A stretch of 64,000 nt of DNA from an uncultured Bacteroidales bacterium (GCA_963717995.1 CAVQXX010000015.1:91871-155870), one strand, 5' to 3'. Positions 8,277-59,288 are shown, counted from the stretch's first letter. Notes: generated by a model not told the origin, from the sequence alone. Numbers and translations are program-made.

Positions 8277-8368
8277 TTAATGATTTGAAGAAAAATTACC
8301 ACAAAATTCAGAACATAATAAAGAATATCGACAAACTCCTGAAAAATCATGATTAAAACGTATGTTCA

Positions 8369-8398
8369 GCAGTTTTGCAGTTATGCAGTTATGCAGTT
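8369..8398. repeat. (GCAGTT[TA]T)n 8-bp tandem array, reverse complement of the CTGCATAA family
   Basis: gcagttttgcagttatgcagttatgcagtt, 30 nt downstream of the GH13 stop. Confidence 0.85.
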
Positions 8399-14766: not shown

Positions 14767-14837
14767 GTAGAAATTTTATTATTGAAATCATAATGTAAGA
14801 TAGTAAAATAAGAATTATGAATGAGGAATGATGAAAA

Positions 14838-14908
14838 CTAATGTGCTAATGTGCTAATGTGCTAATATGCTAATATGCAAATGTGCTAATGTGCTGATGT
14901 GGTAATGT
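14838..14908. repeat. (GTGCTAAT)n 8-bp tandem array, about 9 units with variants
   Basis: ctaatgtgctaatgtgctaatgtgctaatatgctaatatgcaaatgtgctaatgtgctgatgtggtaatgt. Confidence 0.9.
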
Positions 14909-14980
14909 AAGTCATGAAGTCGGGAAGGCCTCGGAGAGGCCATTATCAATAACCGTGGGTGAAACCCACGCAGAGTGAGC

Positions 14981-15649: not shown

Positions 15650-15680
15650 AAGGAGGGAAAAACTAAAAGTGGATAACAAT

Positions 15681-15728
15681 ATGCTAATGTGCTAATGTGC
15701 TAATGTGCTAATGTGCTAATGTGCTAAT
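15681..15728. repeat. (GTGCTAAT)n 8-bp tandem array, 6 units, same orientation as 14838-14908
   Basis: atgctaatgtgctaatgtgctaatgtgctaatgtgctaatgtgctaat. Confidence 0.92.
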
Positions 15729-15806
15729 TGGGCTGACGCATCTGCAGATCTGCAAAACTAAAGAATATCAAACTGCAGAACTTTTCTTCGGCTGCAATAC
15801 TTCCTT

Positions 15807-15856
15807 ACTGCATAACTGTATAACTGCATAACTGCATAATTGCAGAACTGCAGAAC
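15807..15856. repeat. (CTGCA[TG]AA)n 8-bp tandem array
   Basis: actgcataactgtataactgcataactgcataattgcagaactgcagaac. It ends 2 nt from the corrected DUF1015 stop codon (15859-15861). Confidence 0.9.
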
Positions 15857-15858
15857 AT

Positions 15859-20166: not shown

Positions 20167-20247
20167 TGCTTATTGTCAGTTTTGAATTGCTGCAACAAAT
20201 AAAAAACAATTTACCATGCAAAAAAAGAAAAATGAGGTTTTATTTTA

Positions 20248-20401
20248 CCACAGAGGCGTCAGAGTTATTCGCTGAGGTCGCAGAGTTTTAAATATTAGCC
20301 ACTAAGACACAAAGACACGAAGATAAGAGCTTTAGCGTCTTTGTGTCTTTGTGGGAAATATACTTTGAGTTCTTTGTGATTAGCCTTTGAGTCCTTTGTG
20401 G
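20248..20401. repeat. CAGAG / CACAAAG / CTTTGAG word mosaic with an 18-bp hairpin; a diverged reverse-oriented relative of the 161-bp repeat
   Basis: ccactaagacacaaagac (20299-20316) pairs with gtctttgtgtctttgtgg (20337-20354), 17 of 18 bp. The reverse complement of 20356-20401 contains aaggactcaaagg and ccacaaagac, both shared with 47231-47391 and 58316-58476. Confidence 0.75.
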
Positions 20402-20435
20402 TTAATTTTTTACTACCGCCGAAGGCGGTTGATTC

Positions 20436-25992: not shown

Positions 25993-27948
25993 TTATTTAA
26001 CCAGAAGTTTTCCTGAGAATCGATCCTTCGGTGAATCAAGGATCAGAAAATATGCGCCTTTCTGCAGTGAACTGATATCTATCGGTTCGGAAATATTTTT
26101 AAGATAGGTATCACGAATCACCACGCCGCTCATATTGATCAATCTTAGCCTTCCTTCTTTCAGATCATTTAATCCCGAAAGATTTACATAATCTGACGCA
26201 GGATTAGGATGAATACTAAGATTTTTACTGCCGGTTCTGTCAAATATGCCGGTTGGTGTTGAAGGTATGAGAACAGCGTTGATCACATGAACAACCCCGT
26301 TATCAGCCTGGAGGTCGGCAACAGTCACCTGTGCATCATTGATAAACACTCCTTCTTCATTGATGGTCACTTTCACATCCTTACCGAGAAGGGTAGGGAT
26401 CATTTGTCCGTCTGACAGATCTCCGGAGGTTACCGCACCGCTGGCAACATGATATAGCAATATATCGGCCAGGGCACCGGTAGGATCAGCGAGCAGTGCT
26501 TCAATAGTGCCCTCGGGCAACGCTTTGAATGCATCATCAGTGGGTGCAAAAACGGTGAAAGGACCGGCACCGGAGAGATCATCAGCAAGACCGGCTGCAA
26601 TTACAGCGGCTTCAAGGGTATCGTGAGCAGGACTGTTGACAATGATGTCAACCACTGTGGTTGAGGGAGGCAGAAGAACAGCGTTTATAACATGCACAAC
26701 CCCGTTATCAGCAAGAAGGTCGGCAACAGTCACTTGTGCATCATTGATAAACACTCCTTCTTCATTGATGGTGACTTTCACATCCTTACCGAGAAGGGTG
26801 GGGATCATTTGTCCGTCTGACAGATCTCCGGACGTTACCGCACCACTGGCAACATGATATAGCAATATATCGGCCAGGGCACCGGTAGGATCAGCGAGCA
26901 GTGCTTCAATAGTGCCCTCGGGCAACGCTTTGAATGCATCATCAGTGGGTGCAAAAACGGTGAAAGGACCGGCACCGGAGAGATCATCAGCAAGACCGGC
27001 TGCAATTACAGCGGCTTCAAGGGTATCGTGAGCAGGACTGTTGACAATGATGTCAACCACTGTGGTTGAGGGAGGCAGAAGAACAGCGTTTATAACATGC
27101 ACAACCCCGTTATCGGCATGAAGGTCGGCAACAGTCACCTGTGCATCATTGATAAACACACCTTCTTCATTGATGGTCACTTTCACATCCTTACCGAGAA
27201 GGGTAGGGATCATTTGTCCATCAGACAGGTCGCCTGACAATACCTTACCACTGGCAACATGATATAGCAATATATCGGCCAGGGCACCGGTAGGATCAGC
27301 GAGCAATGCTTCAATAGTGCCCTCGGGCAAAGATTTGAATGCATCATCAGTGGGTGCAAAAACGGTGAAAGGACCGTCACCGGAGAGATCATCAGCAAGA
27401 CCGGCTGCAATTACAGCGGCTTCAAGGGTATCGTGAGCAGGACTGTTGACAATGATGTCAACCACTGTGGTTGAGGGAGGCAGAAGAACAGCGTTTATAA
27501 CATGCACAACCCCGTTATCGGCATGAAGGTCGGCAACCGTCACCTGTGCATCATTGATAAACACACCTTCTTCATTGATGGTCACTTTCACATCCTTACC
27601 GAGAAGGGTAGGGATCATTTGTCCGTCTGACAGATCTCCGGATGTTACCGCACCACTGGCAACATGATATAGCAGTATATCGGCCAGGGCACCGGTAGGA
27701 TCAGCGAGCAATGCTTCAATAGTGCCCTCGGGCAAAGATTTGAATGCATCATCAGTGGGTGCAAAAACGGTGAAAGGACCGTCACCGGAGAGATCATCGG
27801 CAAGACCGGCTGCAATTACAGCGGCTTCAAGGGTGTCGTGAGCAGGACTGTTGACAATGATGTCAACCACTGTTTGTGCCTTCAGATTGTTAAACGATAA
27901 CAAAATGGCAAGAAACAGCATCTGGATAAAAAGTACGCTTTTTTTCAT
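25993..27948 (-). CDS. T9SS-secreted protein with four tandem fasciclin (FAS1) domains
   Basis: Signal peptide, then 4 x 135 aa FAS1 units (..[26 protein letters not shown]..), then a C-terminal Por/T9SS sorting domain (..[27 protein letters not shown]). Confidence 0.88.
26254..27873. repeat. Four tandem, near-identical 405-bp coding repeats (one FAS1 domain each)
   Basis: The marker string gactgttgac recurs at 26631, 27036, 27441 and 27846, an exact 405-bp period. The translated units differ at only a handful of positions (GDG/GAG, FKS/FKA, GAVTSG/GKVLSG, H/L/Q-ADNG). Confidence 0.95.
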
Positions 27949-32059: not shown

Positions 32060-32206
32060 AAAAATTTTCTCGCTGATCTCGCTGTTCCCGCAGATTTAAC
32101 GCTGGAAGAATTTGTTAATATATTAAATCTGCGAAATCTGCGAAAATCTGCGAGCAAAAAAACCCGAAAACATAAATTAATCTGCGTGGTCCGCAGGATC
32201 TGTGAG
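32060..32206. repeat. Mosaic of (TCTCGCTG)2, a 10-bp inverted repeat and an ATCTGCGA-type element (copy 1 of a ~61-bp dispersed repeat at 32126-32186)
   Basis: cgcagattta (32080-32089) is complementary to taaatctgcg (32124-32133). aatctgcgaaatctgcgaaaatctgcgag..ttaatctgcg aligns with 58496-58557 (27 of 29 in the first block). Confidence 0.8.
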
Positions 32207-46732: not shown

Positions 46733-47191
46733 TCAATCAAATAATTTTTTCACAATATTTTCAAGGTGAAGAGCATCTGTATTGTCAAAATTTGACAGGA
46801 GGTTGCTATCGATATCAAGAACACCGATTAATTTGTTTTCACGATTTTTTACAGGCACTACAATTTCTGATTTTGACCTGGAATCACAAGCGATATGTCC
46901 CGGAAACCGGTGCACATCATCTACAACGATTGTCTGATCCTGATTGATACCCGTCCAGCATACACCTTTATCCTTTTCAAGCTCCAGGCACGCCAGAGGA
47001 CCCTGGTATGGTCCTACAATCAGACGGCCTTCTTTTAACAGGTAAAAACCAACCCAGAAAAACCCATCCATTTTATGATAGAGAACTGCATTGACGGTAG
47101 CCATTCGGGCATCCATATCCTGGTTTTTTCTGAACAGCTCTGTAATTTGCTTTTCAAGTCGGGTGTAGCGCGCGGATTTTTTGTCATTCAT
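46733..47191 (-). CDS. GAF-domain protein (free methionine-(R)-sulfoxide reductase MsrC/YebR-like)
   Basis: 152 aa; ..FFWVGFYL..LIVGPYQGPLACLEL..GVCW.., ..FPGHIACDSRSKSEIVVPV... Confidence 0.7.
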   Translation of the reverse strand: MNDKKSARYTRLEKQITELFRKNQDMDARMATVNAVLYHKMDGFFWVGFYLLKEGRLIVGPYQGPLACLELEKDKGVCWTGINQDQTIVVDDVHRFPGHIACDSRSKSEIVVPVKNRENKLIGVLDIDSNLLSNFDNTDALHLENIVKKLFD

Positions 47192-47230
47192 AATGGCAAA
47201 TTTACGATTTATCGTTTAGTATGGAGTAAA

Positions 47231-47391
47231 AAAGTTTAAAAAGTACGCCTTCGGCATTTTGAGAATTTACCGCGAAGGACTCAAAGGATTTTTCCCGAAG
47301 AGATGCCTTCGGCACACAAAGGAAACCCAAAGGAATTTCTGCCACAAAGACTCAAAGACACAAAGGATCTCATTGCATTCGATTAACCGTT
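47231..47391. repeat. 161-bp dispersed repeat, copy A
   Basis: Aligns without gaps to 58316-58476 with 7 mismatches in 161 by my manual alignment. Contains CTTCGG-type hairpins (acgccttcggc, ccgaag..cttcgg) and CACAAAG/ACTCAAAG words. Confidence 0.92.
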
Positions 47392-47402
47392 AAAGAAAAT
47401 AC

Positions 47403-47434
47403 TGATTACCGATTACCGAATACCGATTACCGAC
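47403..47434. repeat. (GATTACC)n 7-bp tandem array abutting the arfB stop codon
   Basis: tgattaccgattaccgaataccgattaccgac; the arfB stop codon is at 47435-47437. Confidence 0.88.
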
Positions 47435-47848
47435 TTATTCATCCATCTTCCGGAGTGCCTTTTTTCGGGACTGTAGTTTTTTTGATTCTATTCTTCTTTC
47501 TTTTGACGCCAGGGTAGGTCGCGTTGGTTTACGCTTCCTGACAGGCATCAGGGCCTTTTGAAGTAATTTATAAAACCGTTCCGTAACTTTTTTCTTATTA
47601 GCTATCTGTGAACGTTCGGTTTGTGAAACAAGGATTAGAAATCCTTCCTTATTGATCCTGTTGCCCAGGGCAGATTGAATCTTTGCCTTTTCTTCATCAT
47701 TCAGCAAGGAAGAACCAGCAATGTTATACCGAAGCTCAATGCGGGTATTCACCTTATTCACATTCTGTCCGCCAGGGCCACTGCTCCGTGATGATGAATA
47801 AATCAATTCCCCCGACAGATCTCTATCCTGAATACCGGCCTCAAACAT
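47435..47848 (-). CDS. arfB: Alternative ribosome-rescue factor ArfB (peptidyl-tRNA hydrolase, GGQ family)
   Basis: 137 aa; ..SSGPGGQNVNKVNT.. GGQ motif and a basic C-terminal tail. Confidence 0.85.
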   Translation of the reverse strand: MFEAGIQDRDLSGELIYSSSRSSGPGGQNVNKVNTRIELRYNIAGSSLLNDEEKAKIQSALGNRINKEGFLILVSQTERSQIANKKKVTERFYKLLQKALMPVRKRKPTRPTLASKERRIESKKLQSRKKALRKMDE

Positions 47849-56189: not shown

Positions 56190-56294
56190 AATGTTGAAAT
56201 CAGGAAATAGCGTAATTTGCCCGCAAAGGTAATGAAATATGTTGATCTGGTTATAAAAACCCTGGGAAATACGGACAATAAGAAGGTAAAGAAA

Positions 56295-58205
56295 ATGTAT
56301 TATTTTTACCTGATGTATAAATCATGGCTGCTGCTGATATCGGCTTTCTTTGTTATATATTCAGAGGATATACTGGGACAAAATGAGCCAAAGGATACGC
56401 TGAGCGTTATTGAAGTTATAACTCAACGCAAGGACTCCATGGTTCGCAATCCGGGAGCATCTTTGGGAAAATGGAATCATCTCTCCGACAGCCTTTTTTT
56501 ATCAACTCGCCCAAACCGTTTCAATCGTGAATTAAACAACCTGCTGCAGAAATTTTATCATTCACACCCTAAAAACAAGAAAATACCGGTCACAAACGCT
56601 AACCTCACTGCATATGATGGATTGATTATCCGCAAAATTCAATTCAAAACACTAAATGTGTTTTCCGGCTCCATTGAGGATACGAGTTATGTTCCGTCTA
56701 ACTGGACTGAAAAGGCTGTAACTGCAATTCACTTTAATACACGTGAGAAGATCATCAGGAAAAATCTGCTTTTCCAGAAGGATGACAGGCTTGATGTTTT
56801 CCTGGTGGCTGAAAATGAACGAATGATCAGGGAACTACCCTATATCCGGGACGCAAGATTTCTTATAAATACTATTCCGGGATCGCCTGATTCAATAGAT
56901 ATAATTTTGCTGACGAAAGACCTGATCCCACTCGGTTTCAGTGCTGAACTCTCCAGGCCGGATGCAGGAAATGCGAGTATCGGATATTATAACATATTTG
57001 GGTATGGACACCAGTTTGAAACCACGACCTATTGGGACGGAAGGCATACGCCATTTTTAGGGTTTAAACTCCACTATGGGATTCCTAATATACAAGGTAC
57101 ATATATCTCATCAGACCTGGAATACACCCACCGCTGGAATACCGATATGAGCAGGATACGGTTGGAACGCAATTTCAGGACTGTTGGCATAAAATATGCC
57201 GGTGCCGTTGAACTTACGAATGCTGATCTGCAGCGCGATCTTGTTTTACAGGATACAACAATAGATAATATTACCTGGAAATATACCAACTATGATTTCT
57301 GGGTAGGCAGATTATTTAGTGTGAAAAAAGGAAATACTGCAGGAACCCGCAAGGGATTATTTCTTTCCGGCCGGGCCTTTTATAACTACAACAGAGAGAC
57401 ACCGCAAACGGAAGAACATAATTATTATGCATTTCAGGACAAAACCATGCTTCTTTTTTCCACAGGATACACATACCGTGGTTTTCGAAAAGATAATATG
57501 ATCTTTACATTCGACAAGATAGAGGACGTACCGTACGGTTATATGTTTGAAATAACATCGGGATATGAATGGGGACAATATGTTGGCAGACCCTACTTCG
57601 CGGCCAATATATCATTCGGCAAATACATGGCCCGTCATTACTTATATGGTCAGTTCGGATACGGGACTTTTGTCCATAATCATTCCCTTGAACAGGGAAC
57701 AATTCATTTGCAGTTAAAGGGTTTTTCAAATCTGAATACCTGGGGTATGTTTTTCCAAAACAGGAATTTTTTTACGTTTACTTATTTGAATGGAATAAAC
57801 AGGTTTAAGGATGAGTTTACCCGTTTGGAAAATAAGGGCGGCATACCCGGACTTTACAGCCCGTCCTTAAGGGGCAATGAAAAATTTGTTCTGAATCTGG
57901 AATCTGTTTTGTTCAGTCCTTACCGCTTGCTGGGATTTCGTTTTGCCTTTTTTGCATCAGTTGACCTTGGGTTCATCAAAACAGAAAATCTCAGTTTCTA
58001 TGAGTCAACGCCTTATTCAGGATTGGGACTTGGAATCCGGATCAGAAATGAACGACTTGTTTTTGATACATTTGAGATCAAGTTTTCAATCTATCCGGGA
58101 ATGCCTGCAGATGCAGATCCCATGTATATCAATGCAGGCAGCATTCCCCGCATCAGATCGAATGTTCTTTTTCCGGACAAACCAACGATACTGGAATATA
58201 ATTAG
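56295..58205 (+). CDS. Omp85/BamA-like outer-membrane beta-barrel protein with one POTRA-like domain
   Basis: POTRA-like segment (IIRKIQFKTLNVFSG..REKIIRKNLLFQKDDRLD..ENERMIRELPYIRDARFLI..IDIILLTKD). Omp85-type ..YYNIFGYGHQFETT.. and an alternating-hydrophobic barrel region. Start uncertain (ATG at 56295 or 56313; the ORF-track TTG is at 56217). Confidence 0.6.
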   Translation: MYYFYLMYKSWLLLISAFFVIYSEDILGQNEPKDTLSVIEVITQRKDSMVRNPGASLGKWNHLSDSLFLSTRPNRFNRELNNLLQKFYHSHPKNKKIPVTNANLTAYDGLIIRKIQFKTLNVFSGSIEDTSYVPSNWTEKAVTAIHFNTREKIIRKNLLFQKDDRLDVFLVAENERMIRELPYIRDARFLINTIPGSPDSIDIILLTKDLIPLGFSAELSRPDAGNASIGYYNIFGYGHQFETTTYWDGRHTPFLGFKLHYGIPNIQGTYISSDLEYTHRWNTDMSRIRLERNFRTVGIKYAGAVELTNADLQRDLVLQDTTIDNITWKYTNYDFWVGRLFSVKKGNTAGTRKGLFLSGRAFYNYNRETPQTEEHNYYAFQDKTMLLFSTGYTYRGFRKDNMIFTFDKIEDVPYGYMFEITSGYEWGQYVGRPYFAANISFGKYMARHYLYGQFGYGTFVHNHSLEQGTIHLQLKGFSNLNTWGMFFQNRNFFTFTYLNGINRFKDEFTRLENKGGIPGLYSPSLRGNEKFVLNLESVLFSPYRLLGFRFAFFASVDLGFIKTENLSFYESTPYSGLGLGIRIRNERLVFDTFEIKFSIYPGMPADADPMYINAGSIPRIRSNVLFPDKPTILEYN

Positions 58206-58223: not shown

Positions 58224-58304
58224 AATGAATTATGAATTATGAATTATGAATTATGAATTATGAATGATGAATTATGAATGATGAATTTGAGGTTTGAGGT
58301 TTGG
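58224..58304. repeat. (TGAAT[TG]A)n 7-bp tandem array (about 9 units) followed by (GAGGTTT)2
   Basis: aatgaattatgaattatgaattatgaattatgaatgatgaattatgaatgatgaatttgaggtttgaggtttgg, starting 18 nt after the Omp85-like stop. Confidence 0.9.
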
Positions 58305-58315
58305 TGTGAAGTAAT

Positions 58316-58476
58316 AAAGTTTAAAAAGTACGCCTTCGGCGTTTTGAGAATTTACCGCGAAGGACTCAAAGGATTGTTCCCGAAGGGATGCTTTCGGCAC
58401 ACAAAGGAAACTAAAAGGAATTTCTGCCACAAAGACTCAAAGACACAAAGGACCTCATTGCATTCGATTAACCGTT
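58316..58476. repeat. 161-bp dispersed repeat, copy B
   Basis: Same orientation and length as 47231-47391. The 71-aa ORF at 58278-58493 is a translation of this repeat and is not called as a gene. Confidence 0.92.
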
Positions 58477-58495
58477 TAAGAACATTGAAATAGCT

Positions 58496-58557
58496 AATCT
58501 GCGAAATCCGTGAAAATCTGCGAGAAAAAAGACCCGTTGAATAAATATTAATCCGCG
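58496..58557. repeat. ATCTGCGA-type ~61-bp dispersed repeat, copy 2
   Basis: aatctgcgaaatccgtgaaaatctgcgagaaaaaagacccgttgaataaatattaatccgcg aligns with 32126-32186. Confidence 0.8.
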
Positions 58558-58568
58558 AAATCCGGACG

Positions 58569-58594
58569 ACTGCAAAACTGCAAAACTGCAGAAC
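58569..58594. repeat. (CTGCA[AG]AA)n 8-bp tandem array
   Basis: actgcaaaactgcaaaactgcagaac, 10 nt from the stop of the lipoprotein gene (58605). Same family as 15807-15856 and 8369-8398. Confidence 0.85.
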
Positions 58595-58604
58595 TTCATC
58601 TTTC

Positions 58605-59288
58605 TTATTCCAGTAACTTATTCAGTATCTCCGTCATCTGATCACGATCAATTATACGGGTGGTTTTGGGAAGATCGTATTCAGCAGGGATTTCTGCAAG
58701 CGGTTGAAATTTTTCGGCACTAAAACGCATACGAAGATTTATCAGGTTCAGCTCAAATTCCATTAATACGCCTTTTATCTTACGATAGGGATTGGTGGAA
58801 TTCGGATGCTTCAGATTGATTTCGCCTGTATAATAAATGTCGAATGTAATATTGTTCGATGGAAGGTATATAATTGCCTTATGACAATTGAAACCCGCAA
58901 TATTCTTGGTTTCTTCAGTTTCGGTGATGACCATTTCATCCATTGAATTAAAACAGCACATCATTTCATTGTGCTTTCCCTTATAAAGATAATTCTTATC
59001 AATTACCTTAAGTACAGTGGAACATTTACGGGTATTAAAATTAGTCAGGGCTTCCAGCTTGTAAAACCCGAGAAATCCTTCAATATTATTTATCGCTTCT
59101 TTCTGGTTAAAAATCAATTTCATTCGCTTGGGCAAAATGTCGAGCATTTTTTTGTCAAGATTATCATTCAGGTAGGTGATTTTATAATCTATTCTGCCGG
59201 AGTCTATTCCGTTGCGACTGCTACTGCCGCCACAGGATGCAAGAATTAAGCTTACCAGAATAACTAAACAAGCCTGTGGTTTATTCAT
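58605..59288 (-). CDS. Hypothetical lipoprotein
   Basis: 227 aa with lipoprotein signal (..LILASCGGSS). I recognise no family. Confidence 0.6.
   Translation of the reverse strand: MNKPQACLVILVSLILASCGGSSSRNGIDSGRIDYKITYLNDNLDKKMLDILPKRMKLIFNQKEAINNIEGFLGFYKLEALTNFNTRKCSTVLKVIDKNYLYKGKHNEMMCCFNSMDEMVITETEETKNIAGFNCHKAIIYLPSNNITFDIYYTGEINLKHPNSTNPYRKIKGVLMEFELNLINLRMRFSAEKFQPLAEIPAEYDLPKTTRIIDRDQMTEILNKLLE

Follow-up and report, generated by a model that had tools for sequence, protein, structure and literature searches.

The two near-identical segments at 47214-47400 (copy A) and 58299-58485 (copy B) of the window, the 64,000-nt stretch of DNA from an uncultured Bacteroidales bacterium that was analysed here, are probably recent paralogous copies of a non-coding, DNA-level mosaic dispersed repeat of the BIME/BOX/BrickBuilt-like kind, copied between intergenic spacers. 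On the best reading, the repeat is neither a small RNA nor a classical MITE, and the observations best fit an element that is tolerated mainly at gene ends, copied at a low rate and continually reshuffled. A preliminary description had offered a MITE/REP-like element or a small RNA; the REP-like, multi-copy dispersed character stood, the hallmarks of a MITE were not found and the small RNA was left without support.

Direct alignment of 47231-47391 with 58316-58476 reproduced the gap-free pairing first described, with 7 mismatches in 161 positions (47256, 47291, 47301, 47307, 47327, 47328 and 47368 in the numbering of copy A). By BLAST the homology covers 187 nt at 93% identity (47214-47400 versus 58299-58485, both plus strand), and the unit is thus approximately 26 nt longer than the 161 nt originally given; a repeat search of the window returned an A/B match of 209 nt at 89%. 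The copies are 11 kb apart, and outside the homology their flanks are unrelated. Copy A is neighboured on its left by a GAF-domain gene (46733-47191, minus strand) and on its right by an ArfB-like gene with an RF-1 domain (47435-47848, minus strand). Copy B has to its left a 662-aa ORF without a Pfam match (56217-58205, plus strand) and to its right a gene of 227 aa (58605-59288, minus strand) that weakly matches PNGase_F-II_N. Both copies had been assigned to gene 3' regions, which is correct for copy B, between convergent genes, and for copy A with respect to arfB, but copy A is also 5' of the GAF gene. The CTTCGG-type hairpins (ACGCCTTCGGCG/AT and CCCGAAGRGATGCYTTCGG) and the CACAAAG/CTCAAAG words were found in both sequences, as reported. 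The absence of a plausible ORF was likewise upheld: the 71-aa ORF at 58278-58493 has no Pfam match, and every reading frame through the core of the element, inspected by eye in all frames, is broken by frequent 1-3-nt indels just upstream of the core, which rules out a conserved reading frame.

The 7-8-nt arrays that border the two copies do differ, with (GATTACC)n at A and (TGAATTA)n, (GAGGTTT)2 and (CTGCAAAA)n at B. The (GATTACC)n array occupies 47404-47433, between copy A and the arfB stop codon and outside the A/B homology, and is different in a related strain from metagenome run X2. To the left of copy B are the (TGAATTA)n and (GAGGTTT)2 arrays (58224-58304), of which the GAGGTTT..GGTG..AAGT part also occurs in the nearest relative, G019, at the corresponding site, which lacks copy B. 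The (CTGCAAAA)n array (58570-58596) adjoins the stop codon of gene 58605-59288, and arrays of this type were also present at site B in G019, G023, G042 and G045. Copying in the direction B to A, considered from approximately 14 nt to the left of A (GTTTAGTATGGAGT) as possible B-site flank, is not relied on, with only 10 of 14 positions matching in low-complexity sequence.

That the element is multi-copy and dispersed was confirmed by a profile search, which gave a family of 61 full and approximately 26 partial copies, with more in four sister species; further copies thus exist beyond the pair. By BLAST, A and B alone are near-identical, and portions of them match dozens of other places. The core, CTCATTGCATTCGAT, was found 89 times at up to 2 mismatches, approximately 65 of these occurrences being intergenic with a common context of ~100-120 nt. 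An nhmmer profile made from 66 copies gave 87 matches in the 5.70-Mb genome (G000), 61 of them spanning the whole model, or about 1 per 90 kb; copy A (53 bits, E 8e-14) and copy B (52.6 bits, E 1e-13) are both members. Judged against crude ORF calls, 56 of the 61 full copies lie outside ORFs and the other 5 overlap one. No common or enriched gene family was found among the genes flanking the copies. The consensus of 117 unique copies from five species reads GAT..CCAAAAATTTTAACgCAGAG..CgCAGAG, followed by a variable middle and then GAGGTCgCAGAGAAAT-CTCATTGCATTCGAT-Taaccg.TTcca. The middle is ~30-50 nt long and of a few types, and the two conserved blocks that flank it are spaced ~53 to 86 nt apart. 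The core is nearly invariant over 15-17 nt, (AT)CTCATTGCATTCGAT, and identical in 47 of 60 copies in G000. The subtype of A and B, with CACAAAG/CTCAAAG and not CRCAGAG, is a minority (5 of 61 full copies and several partial ones). The copy at C15:1490289, considered as a master copy, proved to be just a truncated copy that adjoins the stop codon of an ORF of 1105 aa. Intergenic regions on the small contigs C3, C4, C5, C11, C13 and C16 are 96-100% identical to regions of large contigs (e.g. C11:2995-3157 equals C15:155900-156062, just beyond the window end); whether assembly redundancy or recent segmental duplication, this slightly inflates the copy counts (C12:889541/C13:6818 is one such pair).

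Each copy is a mosaic of a terminator-like GC hairpin, purine-rich 7-nt words, a 21-nt double-hairpin mini-insert and the core. The hairpin of copy A is a 5-bp GC hairpin, ACGCCTTCGGCAT (47245-47257, minus strand), set between an A-run and a T-run and terminator-like on the arfB sense strand, with one stem pair broken (C.A). Its counterpart in copy B, ACGCCTTCGGCGT (58330-58342, minus strand), is a perfect 5-bp hairpin followed by a T-run and is terminator-like for gene 58605-59288. For both copies the upstream gene is read from the minus strand, and on that strand the element ends in the 5-bp GC hairpin and ACTTTTTAAA. These predicted terminators, which would end the arfB and 58605-59288 transcripts, are the sole likely effect on neighbouring genes. 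On the plus strand of copy A, the first part of the word run (..ACCGCGAAGGACTCAAAGGATTTT; 47258-47293) leads to the mini-insert CCCGAAGAGATGCCTTCGGCA (47294-47314; CCCGAAGGGATGCTTTCGGCA at 58379-58399 in copy B), then to the second part of the word run (CACAAAGG, CCCAAAGG, CCACAAAG, CTCAAAG and again CACAAAGG; 47315-47368) and to the core (47369-47383), with TAACCGTT after it up to 47391. In copy B the core (58454-58468, plus strand) is likewise followed by TAACCGTT, up to 58476. The words are degenerate and loosely spaced (mode 9 nt); A and B have the form CWCAAAG, most family members CRCNGAG.

By alignment, the 21-nt double hairpin (CCCGAAGRGATGCYTTCGGCA) in the word run of A and B is absent from the related copies C12:1018328 and C15:448286. 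The 21-mer was also found at approximately 20 other genome sites, in either orientation and mostly between two CGCAGAT words after a T-run, and from this behaviour it looks like an SDR-like very small mobile repeat of the cyanobacterial type. As CCCGAAGGGATGCCTTCGGCA, the unit is nested in other repeats, nearly always between a T-run and the next CRCA word (example sites are C15:448098, C15:273183 and C6:257855). Copy B is followed by a ATCTGCGA-word module (..AATCTGCGAAATCCGTGAAAATCTGCGAGAAAAAAGACCCGTTGAA..; 58486-58567, plus strand) with a relative at 32115-32166; a module of this kind stands within 140 nt after 35 of the 61 full copies, and the 8-mer ATCTGCGA itself occurs 338 times, as against 8-16 times for two control 8-mers of the same composition. 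The inverted relative reported at 20248-20401 (20240-20425 in our analysis, minus strand) proved to be a partial one. Its hairpin, CCGCCTTCGGCGG, and word run, TTAACCACAAAGGACTCAAAGG.., are shared with the family, but it is without the core, and an inverted copy of the words stands where the core would be expected.

The exact 17-mer ATCTCATTGCATTCGAT was counted 60 times in G000, 30 times in G019 and 26 times in G023; the 38 other relatives searched gave 0-1 each. Scanning one genome per species added G042 and G045, in both of which nhmmer confirmed the full element. The family is confined to the subclade of these five species, three of whose family-positive genomes are incomplete MAGs, and G019, G023, G042 and G045 are the closest relatives of G000 by flanking-gene identity (78-92%). 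The other 17-mer matches outside the five are single chance matches with no family context. A phage origin of the core was rejected, 22 of 25 viral 17-mer matches falling in one conserved phage sequence and none of the 25 having family context. In the phage contigs (22 among L066-L090; IMG/VR, mostly metagenome 3300045988), a near-identical region unrelated to the family holds the 17-mer.

Site B has a spacer of 348 nt in G000 and of 80, 106, 150 and 24 nt in G019, G023, G042 and G045, respectively; the element is absent from site B in these four, whose spacers are made up of arrays and unrelated sequence. At site A, G019 is reduced to three TTTACGA units, and the G042 spacer, of 146 nt, is unrelated. 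Because A and B are missing from the spacer of every comparable relative, both were most likely gained in the G000 lineage. The G042 site-A spacer (L013, 2380-2530) carries (TTTACGA)n and its reverse complement (TAAATCG)n, inverted around approximately 85 nt of unique sequence that contains ATCGAATGAACG, with a faint likeness to the reverse core. When 20 loci of G019 were compared with G000, ~8 had a copy at the same site and ~10 did not. Several copy-less sites hold other modules or resemble internal deletions that removed the core, and one precise indel of 284 nt was found right after a stop codon, between GTATTGA and AATAATA. The junction after the stop codon at C1:45245/45246 is empty in G000, is filled by a 284-nt repeat block in G019 (L036) and holds ~7.9 kb of extra sequence in G023 (L052/L056), which marks it as a recurrent break point.

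Sites shared between species show 85-100% identity in their coding flanks and 20-60% in the spacer, where the core is an island of identity. In all 7 orthologous loci compared, the 80 nt to the left of the core had a closer match in a paralog from the same genome than in the ortholog, indicating that copies exchange sequence, probably with the conserved blocks as anchors. At locus L047 the left arm, which is of a different subtype, scored 0.86 against the paralog and 0.69 against the ortholog, and the 60 nt to the right of the core are 97% identical, placing the breakpoint at the core. A second recent pair, C15:1355082/C15:273123, matches over 288 nt at 97%; the segments that its members have in common with their relative C7:16495 end at different points, a 46-nt module indel separates C7:16495 from the pair, and homology boundaries in general vary from pair to pair. 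Head-to-tail units were also seen, in the form of three 221-nt units (core element plus ATCTGCGA module) in G019 and a tandem pair of 252 nt in G000. Only a handful of intergenic duplicates at 88% identity or above were found genome-wide, indicating that copying is slow. A G023-specific insert of 1.35 kb beside a core encodes a protein with what appears by eye to be a T9SS-type C-terminal tail, not a transposase.

Taken as copy-and-paste between intergenic spacers, the process would both spread and homogenise the copies. Ectopic gene conversion or template switching, with the shared modules as anchors, could be responsible, or else a putative trans-acting enzyme; conversion or template switching is suggested by the variable boundaries, the missing target duplications and the greater similarity to paralogs than to orthologs. 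A and B would then have arisen after the G000 lineage split from the nearest species, with ~190 nt copied between spacers 11 kb apart, and the core, to judge from its invariance, would be kept as the recognition site of a putative protein. Gene conversion alone does not account for the first arrival of a module in a spacer without homology, nor for an invariant core beside the most variable stretch between two conserved anchors. Given the bias in orientation described below and the invariance of the core, a host function or a dedicated enzyme is conceivable.

Several alternatives to a mosaic repeat copied between spacers were weighed. A classical non-autonomous transposon, MITE- or REPIN-like, with a transposase encoded elsewhere that recognises the core or TTTTAAC-word arms and cuts or copies the element, seems rather improbable. 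It would fit a multi-copy, intergenic, clade-restricted element that is present or absent between species and has an invariant, recognition-like core within variable DNA, in a genome with Y1 (IS200/RAYT-type) transposase genes. It would also fit the 18 of 61 copies that have a complementary right arm (TTTTAACACAGAG ... CTCTGTGTTAAA) and could form a long hairpin, one 252-nt unit folding to -65 kcal/mol, and this subset looks like a MITE or REPIN. The arm is not terminal in the nhmmer model, however, and A, B and most other copies are without it (arm complementarity z of -0.5 and +1.1 for A and B). Neither A nor B, nor the precise 284-nt indel, showed a target-site duplication, for which the preliminary description had proposed a search, and no terminal inverted repeats were found at A and B. 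Recent pairs differ in their homology boundaries, and copy-less sites usually hold other modules, so that they resemble replacement and not insertion. Y1 genes are present in 28 of 31 genus members, as opposed to the family in only 5, and those of G000 are flanked by REP hairpins of their own. No larger element with the core or the TTTTAACRCAGAG arm at its ends was seen near copies or clusters. We regard a small RNA or cis-acting structured RNA family as very unlikely. The small CTTCGG-type hairpins of A and B, the intergenic location and the conserved sequence block would suit an RNA, and the element had been called structured, but 150-nt stretches over most of A and B folded no better than dinucleotide shuffles on either strand (z +0.1 to +1.3), and 40 family copies gave a mean z of +0.08 on the plus and -0.30 on the minus strand. 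Covariation, proposed earlier as a check, was not detected, and RNAalifold returned empty structures for either strand, whether run on 61 copies or on 111 copies drawn from five species. The top mutual-information column pairs of the 111 copies all lie in the variable middle, are not Watson-Crick and reflect subfamilies. Rfam gave no match in the window or at one extra locus, and three of the 7 A/B differences fall in small hairpin stems, where they give two C.A mismatches and one G.U pair, none of them compensated. Also against an RNA are the varying spacing of the blocks, frequent indels that leave no conserved frame, and the lack, by eye, of a Bacteroidota promoter (-33/-7; TTTG / TAnnTTTG) or a sigma-54 promoter in the conserved blocks; a scan for sigma-70-type promoters gave nothing meaningful. 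Among public runs, the best share of sampled words was 0.26 and only fragmentary related-strain contigs were recovered; one RNA-labelled run gave a few contigs, which were unrelated. There is next to no chance that A and B are a one-off local duplication without a wider family. They alone are near-identical (93%) and only 11 kb apart, but their flanks are unrelated, and the core counts, the 87 nhmmer matches in the genome and the distribution over four other species refute it.

A role for the host is unlikely too. The core would bind a putative nucleoid or regulatory protein, or the pyrimidine-rich complementary strand together with the hairpin would be a selected transcript-end or insulator module. 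Arguing for this, the core is identical in 47 of 60 copies and across five species whose coding DNA is 78-92% and spacers 20-60% identical, the ~60 sites are fairly evenly spread, and at the distal end of A and B a terminator-like hairpin lies on the strand of the upstream gene. Among 56 copies, 20 are placed between convergent genes and 12 between divergent ones; those flanked by co-directional genes run antisense in 19 cases and sense in 5 (binomial p = 0.007), a hint of selection and thus that the element may not be neutral. The core end faces the 3' end of a gene in 39 of the 56. Against a host role, G019 has no copy of the element at site A or site B, G000 and G019 differ at about half of all sites, the changes in the A/B hairpin stems are uncompensated, the copies show no replication-strand (GC skew) bias, and for the 12 copies between divergent genes a 3'-end role is impossible. 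We know of no protein that binds the core. More speculatively, and in our estimate quite improbably, the 17-nt core is the working site of a putative trans-acting protein of the five-species clade. This protein would be either a site-specific recombinase that swaps the word arm, by cassette-like exchange with a fixed breakpoint at the core as at L047, or a chromosome-organising protein with ~60 evenly spread sites. If so, the mosaic repeat would serve a dedicated system as its substrate instead of being passive debris.

Other candidate mobilisers were examined in G000 and its relatives. The two PF01797 (Y1) genes of G000 lie at C2:194857-195201 and C9:3822-4163. A RAYT association was rejected, as both are flanked by unrelated hairpin repeats of their own (CAATACCGTATGCCCTCCGGGCAATGG three times in one set, GGCCACGAAGTGGCC...CCGTGGGTGCTAACCCACGG in the other); the two loci are probably classical REP/RAYT systems separate from the core family. 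No parent insertion sequence was seen near copies or clusters, and the core as an insertion-sequence target was dismissed, there being no split core in G000. The PF05635 (23S rRNA IVS-protein) cassette was dismissed on coordinates, with 0 of 12 G000 loci within ~4 kb of a family match. A group II intron remnant was also rejected, RF00029 having 0 matches in G000, with its 60 cores, and in G023, with its 26. In relatives, group II introns insert in the neighbouring ATCTGCGA words and not in the core, and the repeats give them landing sites. The intron family was seen in three relatives (L193, at G019:C1:8000-9800, with L007/L010/L186; L183 and L185 in G045; L184 and L188 in G042). Its 3' exon always begins CGA(G/A)A, and the single 5' junction that was read, in G019, has ..GAAATCAG as the end of the 5' exon, followed by GTGCG. 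These exon junctions place the insertion point at ATC(T/A)G^CGAGA, inside the commonest word of the arrays flanking the core family, and 3 of 5 intron copies lie in a recognisable ATCTGCGA module.

The kind of element is well known from REP/BIME, BOX and BrickBuilt and is not a new kind of system. REP, BIME and REPIN sequences have been described in enterobacteria and pseudomonads (Nunvar et al. 2010, PMC2817692; Bertels and Rainey 2011, PMC3116915). Like these, the family is short, non-coding, extragenic and lineage-specific, with tens to hundreds of copies that form mosaics with other motifs, are frequent at gene 3' ends and in a subset make inverted doublets able to fold into long hairpins. 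A REP unit is a 20-40-bp imperfect palindrome with a stable stem-loop and, typically, a GTAG/CGTC head, whereas the core here is not palindromic (~12 of 19 positions self-complementary, by eye), the family consensus has no GTAG or CGTC head, and the whole element is no more stable than shuffled sequence. RAYT genes are flanked there by the same repeat, whereas the Y1/RAYT-like genes of G000 have other REPs beside them.

BOX elements of Streptococcus pneumoniae have the arrangement boxA-boxB(n)-boxC, with a predicted stable fold, and are transcribed. The family resembles them in its intergenic location and its conserved end modules around variable internal units, with no transposase known and no clear terminal repeats or target duplications, but sequence and phylum are unrelated and no stable fold was found here. 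BrickBuilt, from Porphyromonas gingivalis, is a MITE that contains an internal minisatellite of 23 nt (Klein et al. 2015, PMC4596501). It too is from Bacteroidales, always intergenic and of limited host range, and it is present in ~19 copies with leader, repeated-brick and tail subunits; this comparison is by architecture, not by sequence similarity. BrickBuilt has exact head-to-tail 23-nt bricks and small inverted-repeat ends, whereas the words here are degenerate 7-nt units and A and B have no inverted ends.

The sub-modules have parallels of their own. Heterocystous cyanobacteria carry small dispersed repeats (SDRs), reportedly described by Elhai and co-workers in 2008, and STRR heptamer arrays, reportedly described by Mazel and co-workers in 1990. 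The 21-nt double hairpin resembles an SDR as a hairpin-forming unit of ~21 nt inserted in other repeat families, and the 7-8-nt tandem arrays around the element resemble STRRs; phylum and sequence are different, and the likeness covers these sub-modules, not the core family. SDRs are cited in PMC3116915.

No description of the family was found in searchable papers. It is now defined by its consensus, copy number, host range and modules, and it adds an environmental Bacteroidales case to REP/BIME, BOX and BrickBuilt, for which spread and function are often obscure too. The core is invariant across species and the arms are hypervariable, an unusually sharp contrast that makes the core a concrete bait for a protein that reads it. 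In practical terms, such repeats interrupt assemblies made from short reads and give rise to spurious ORFs, 58278-58493 being one.

Arrays of 7-8-nt units fill the spacers of the genus, and further examples were seen in the window. Two (AATGTGCT)n arrays (14824-14922 and 15662-15744) bracket ~790 nt, and two (TGCAGTTA)n arrays (8362-8398 and 15799-15858) are inverted with respect to each other and 7.4 kb apart. At 26252-27766, four 300-nt units of 90-94% identity recur at an exact spacing of 405 nt and are probably a repeated domain inside a gene.
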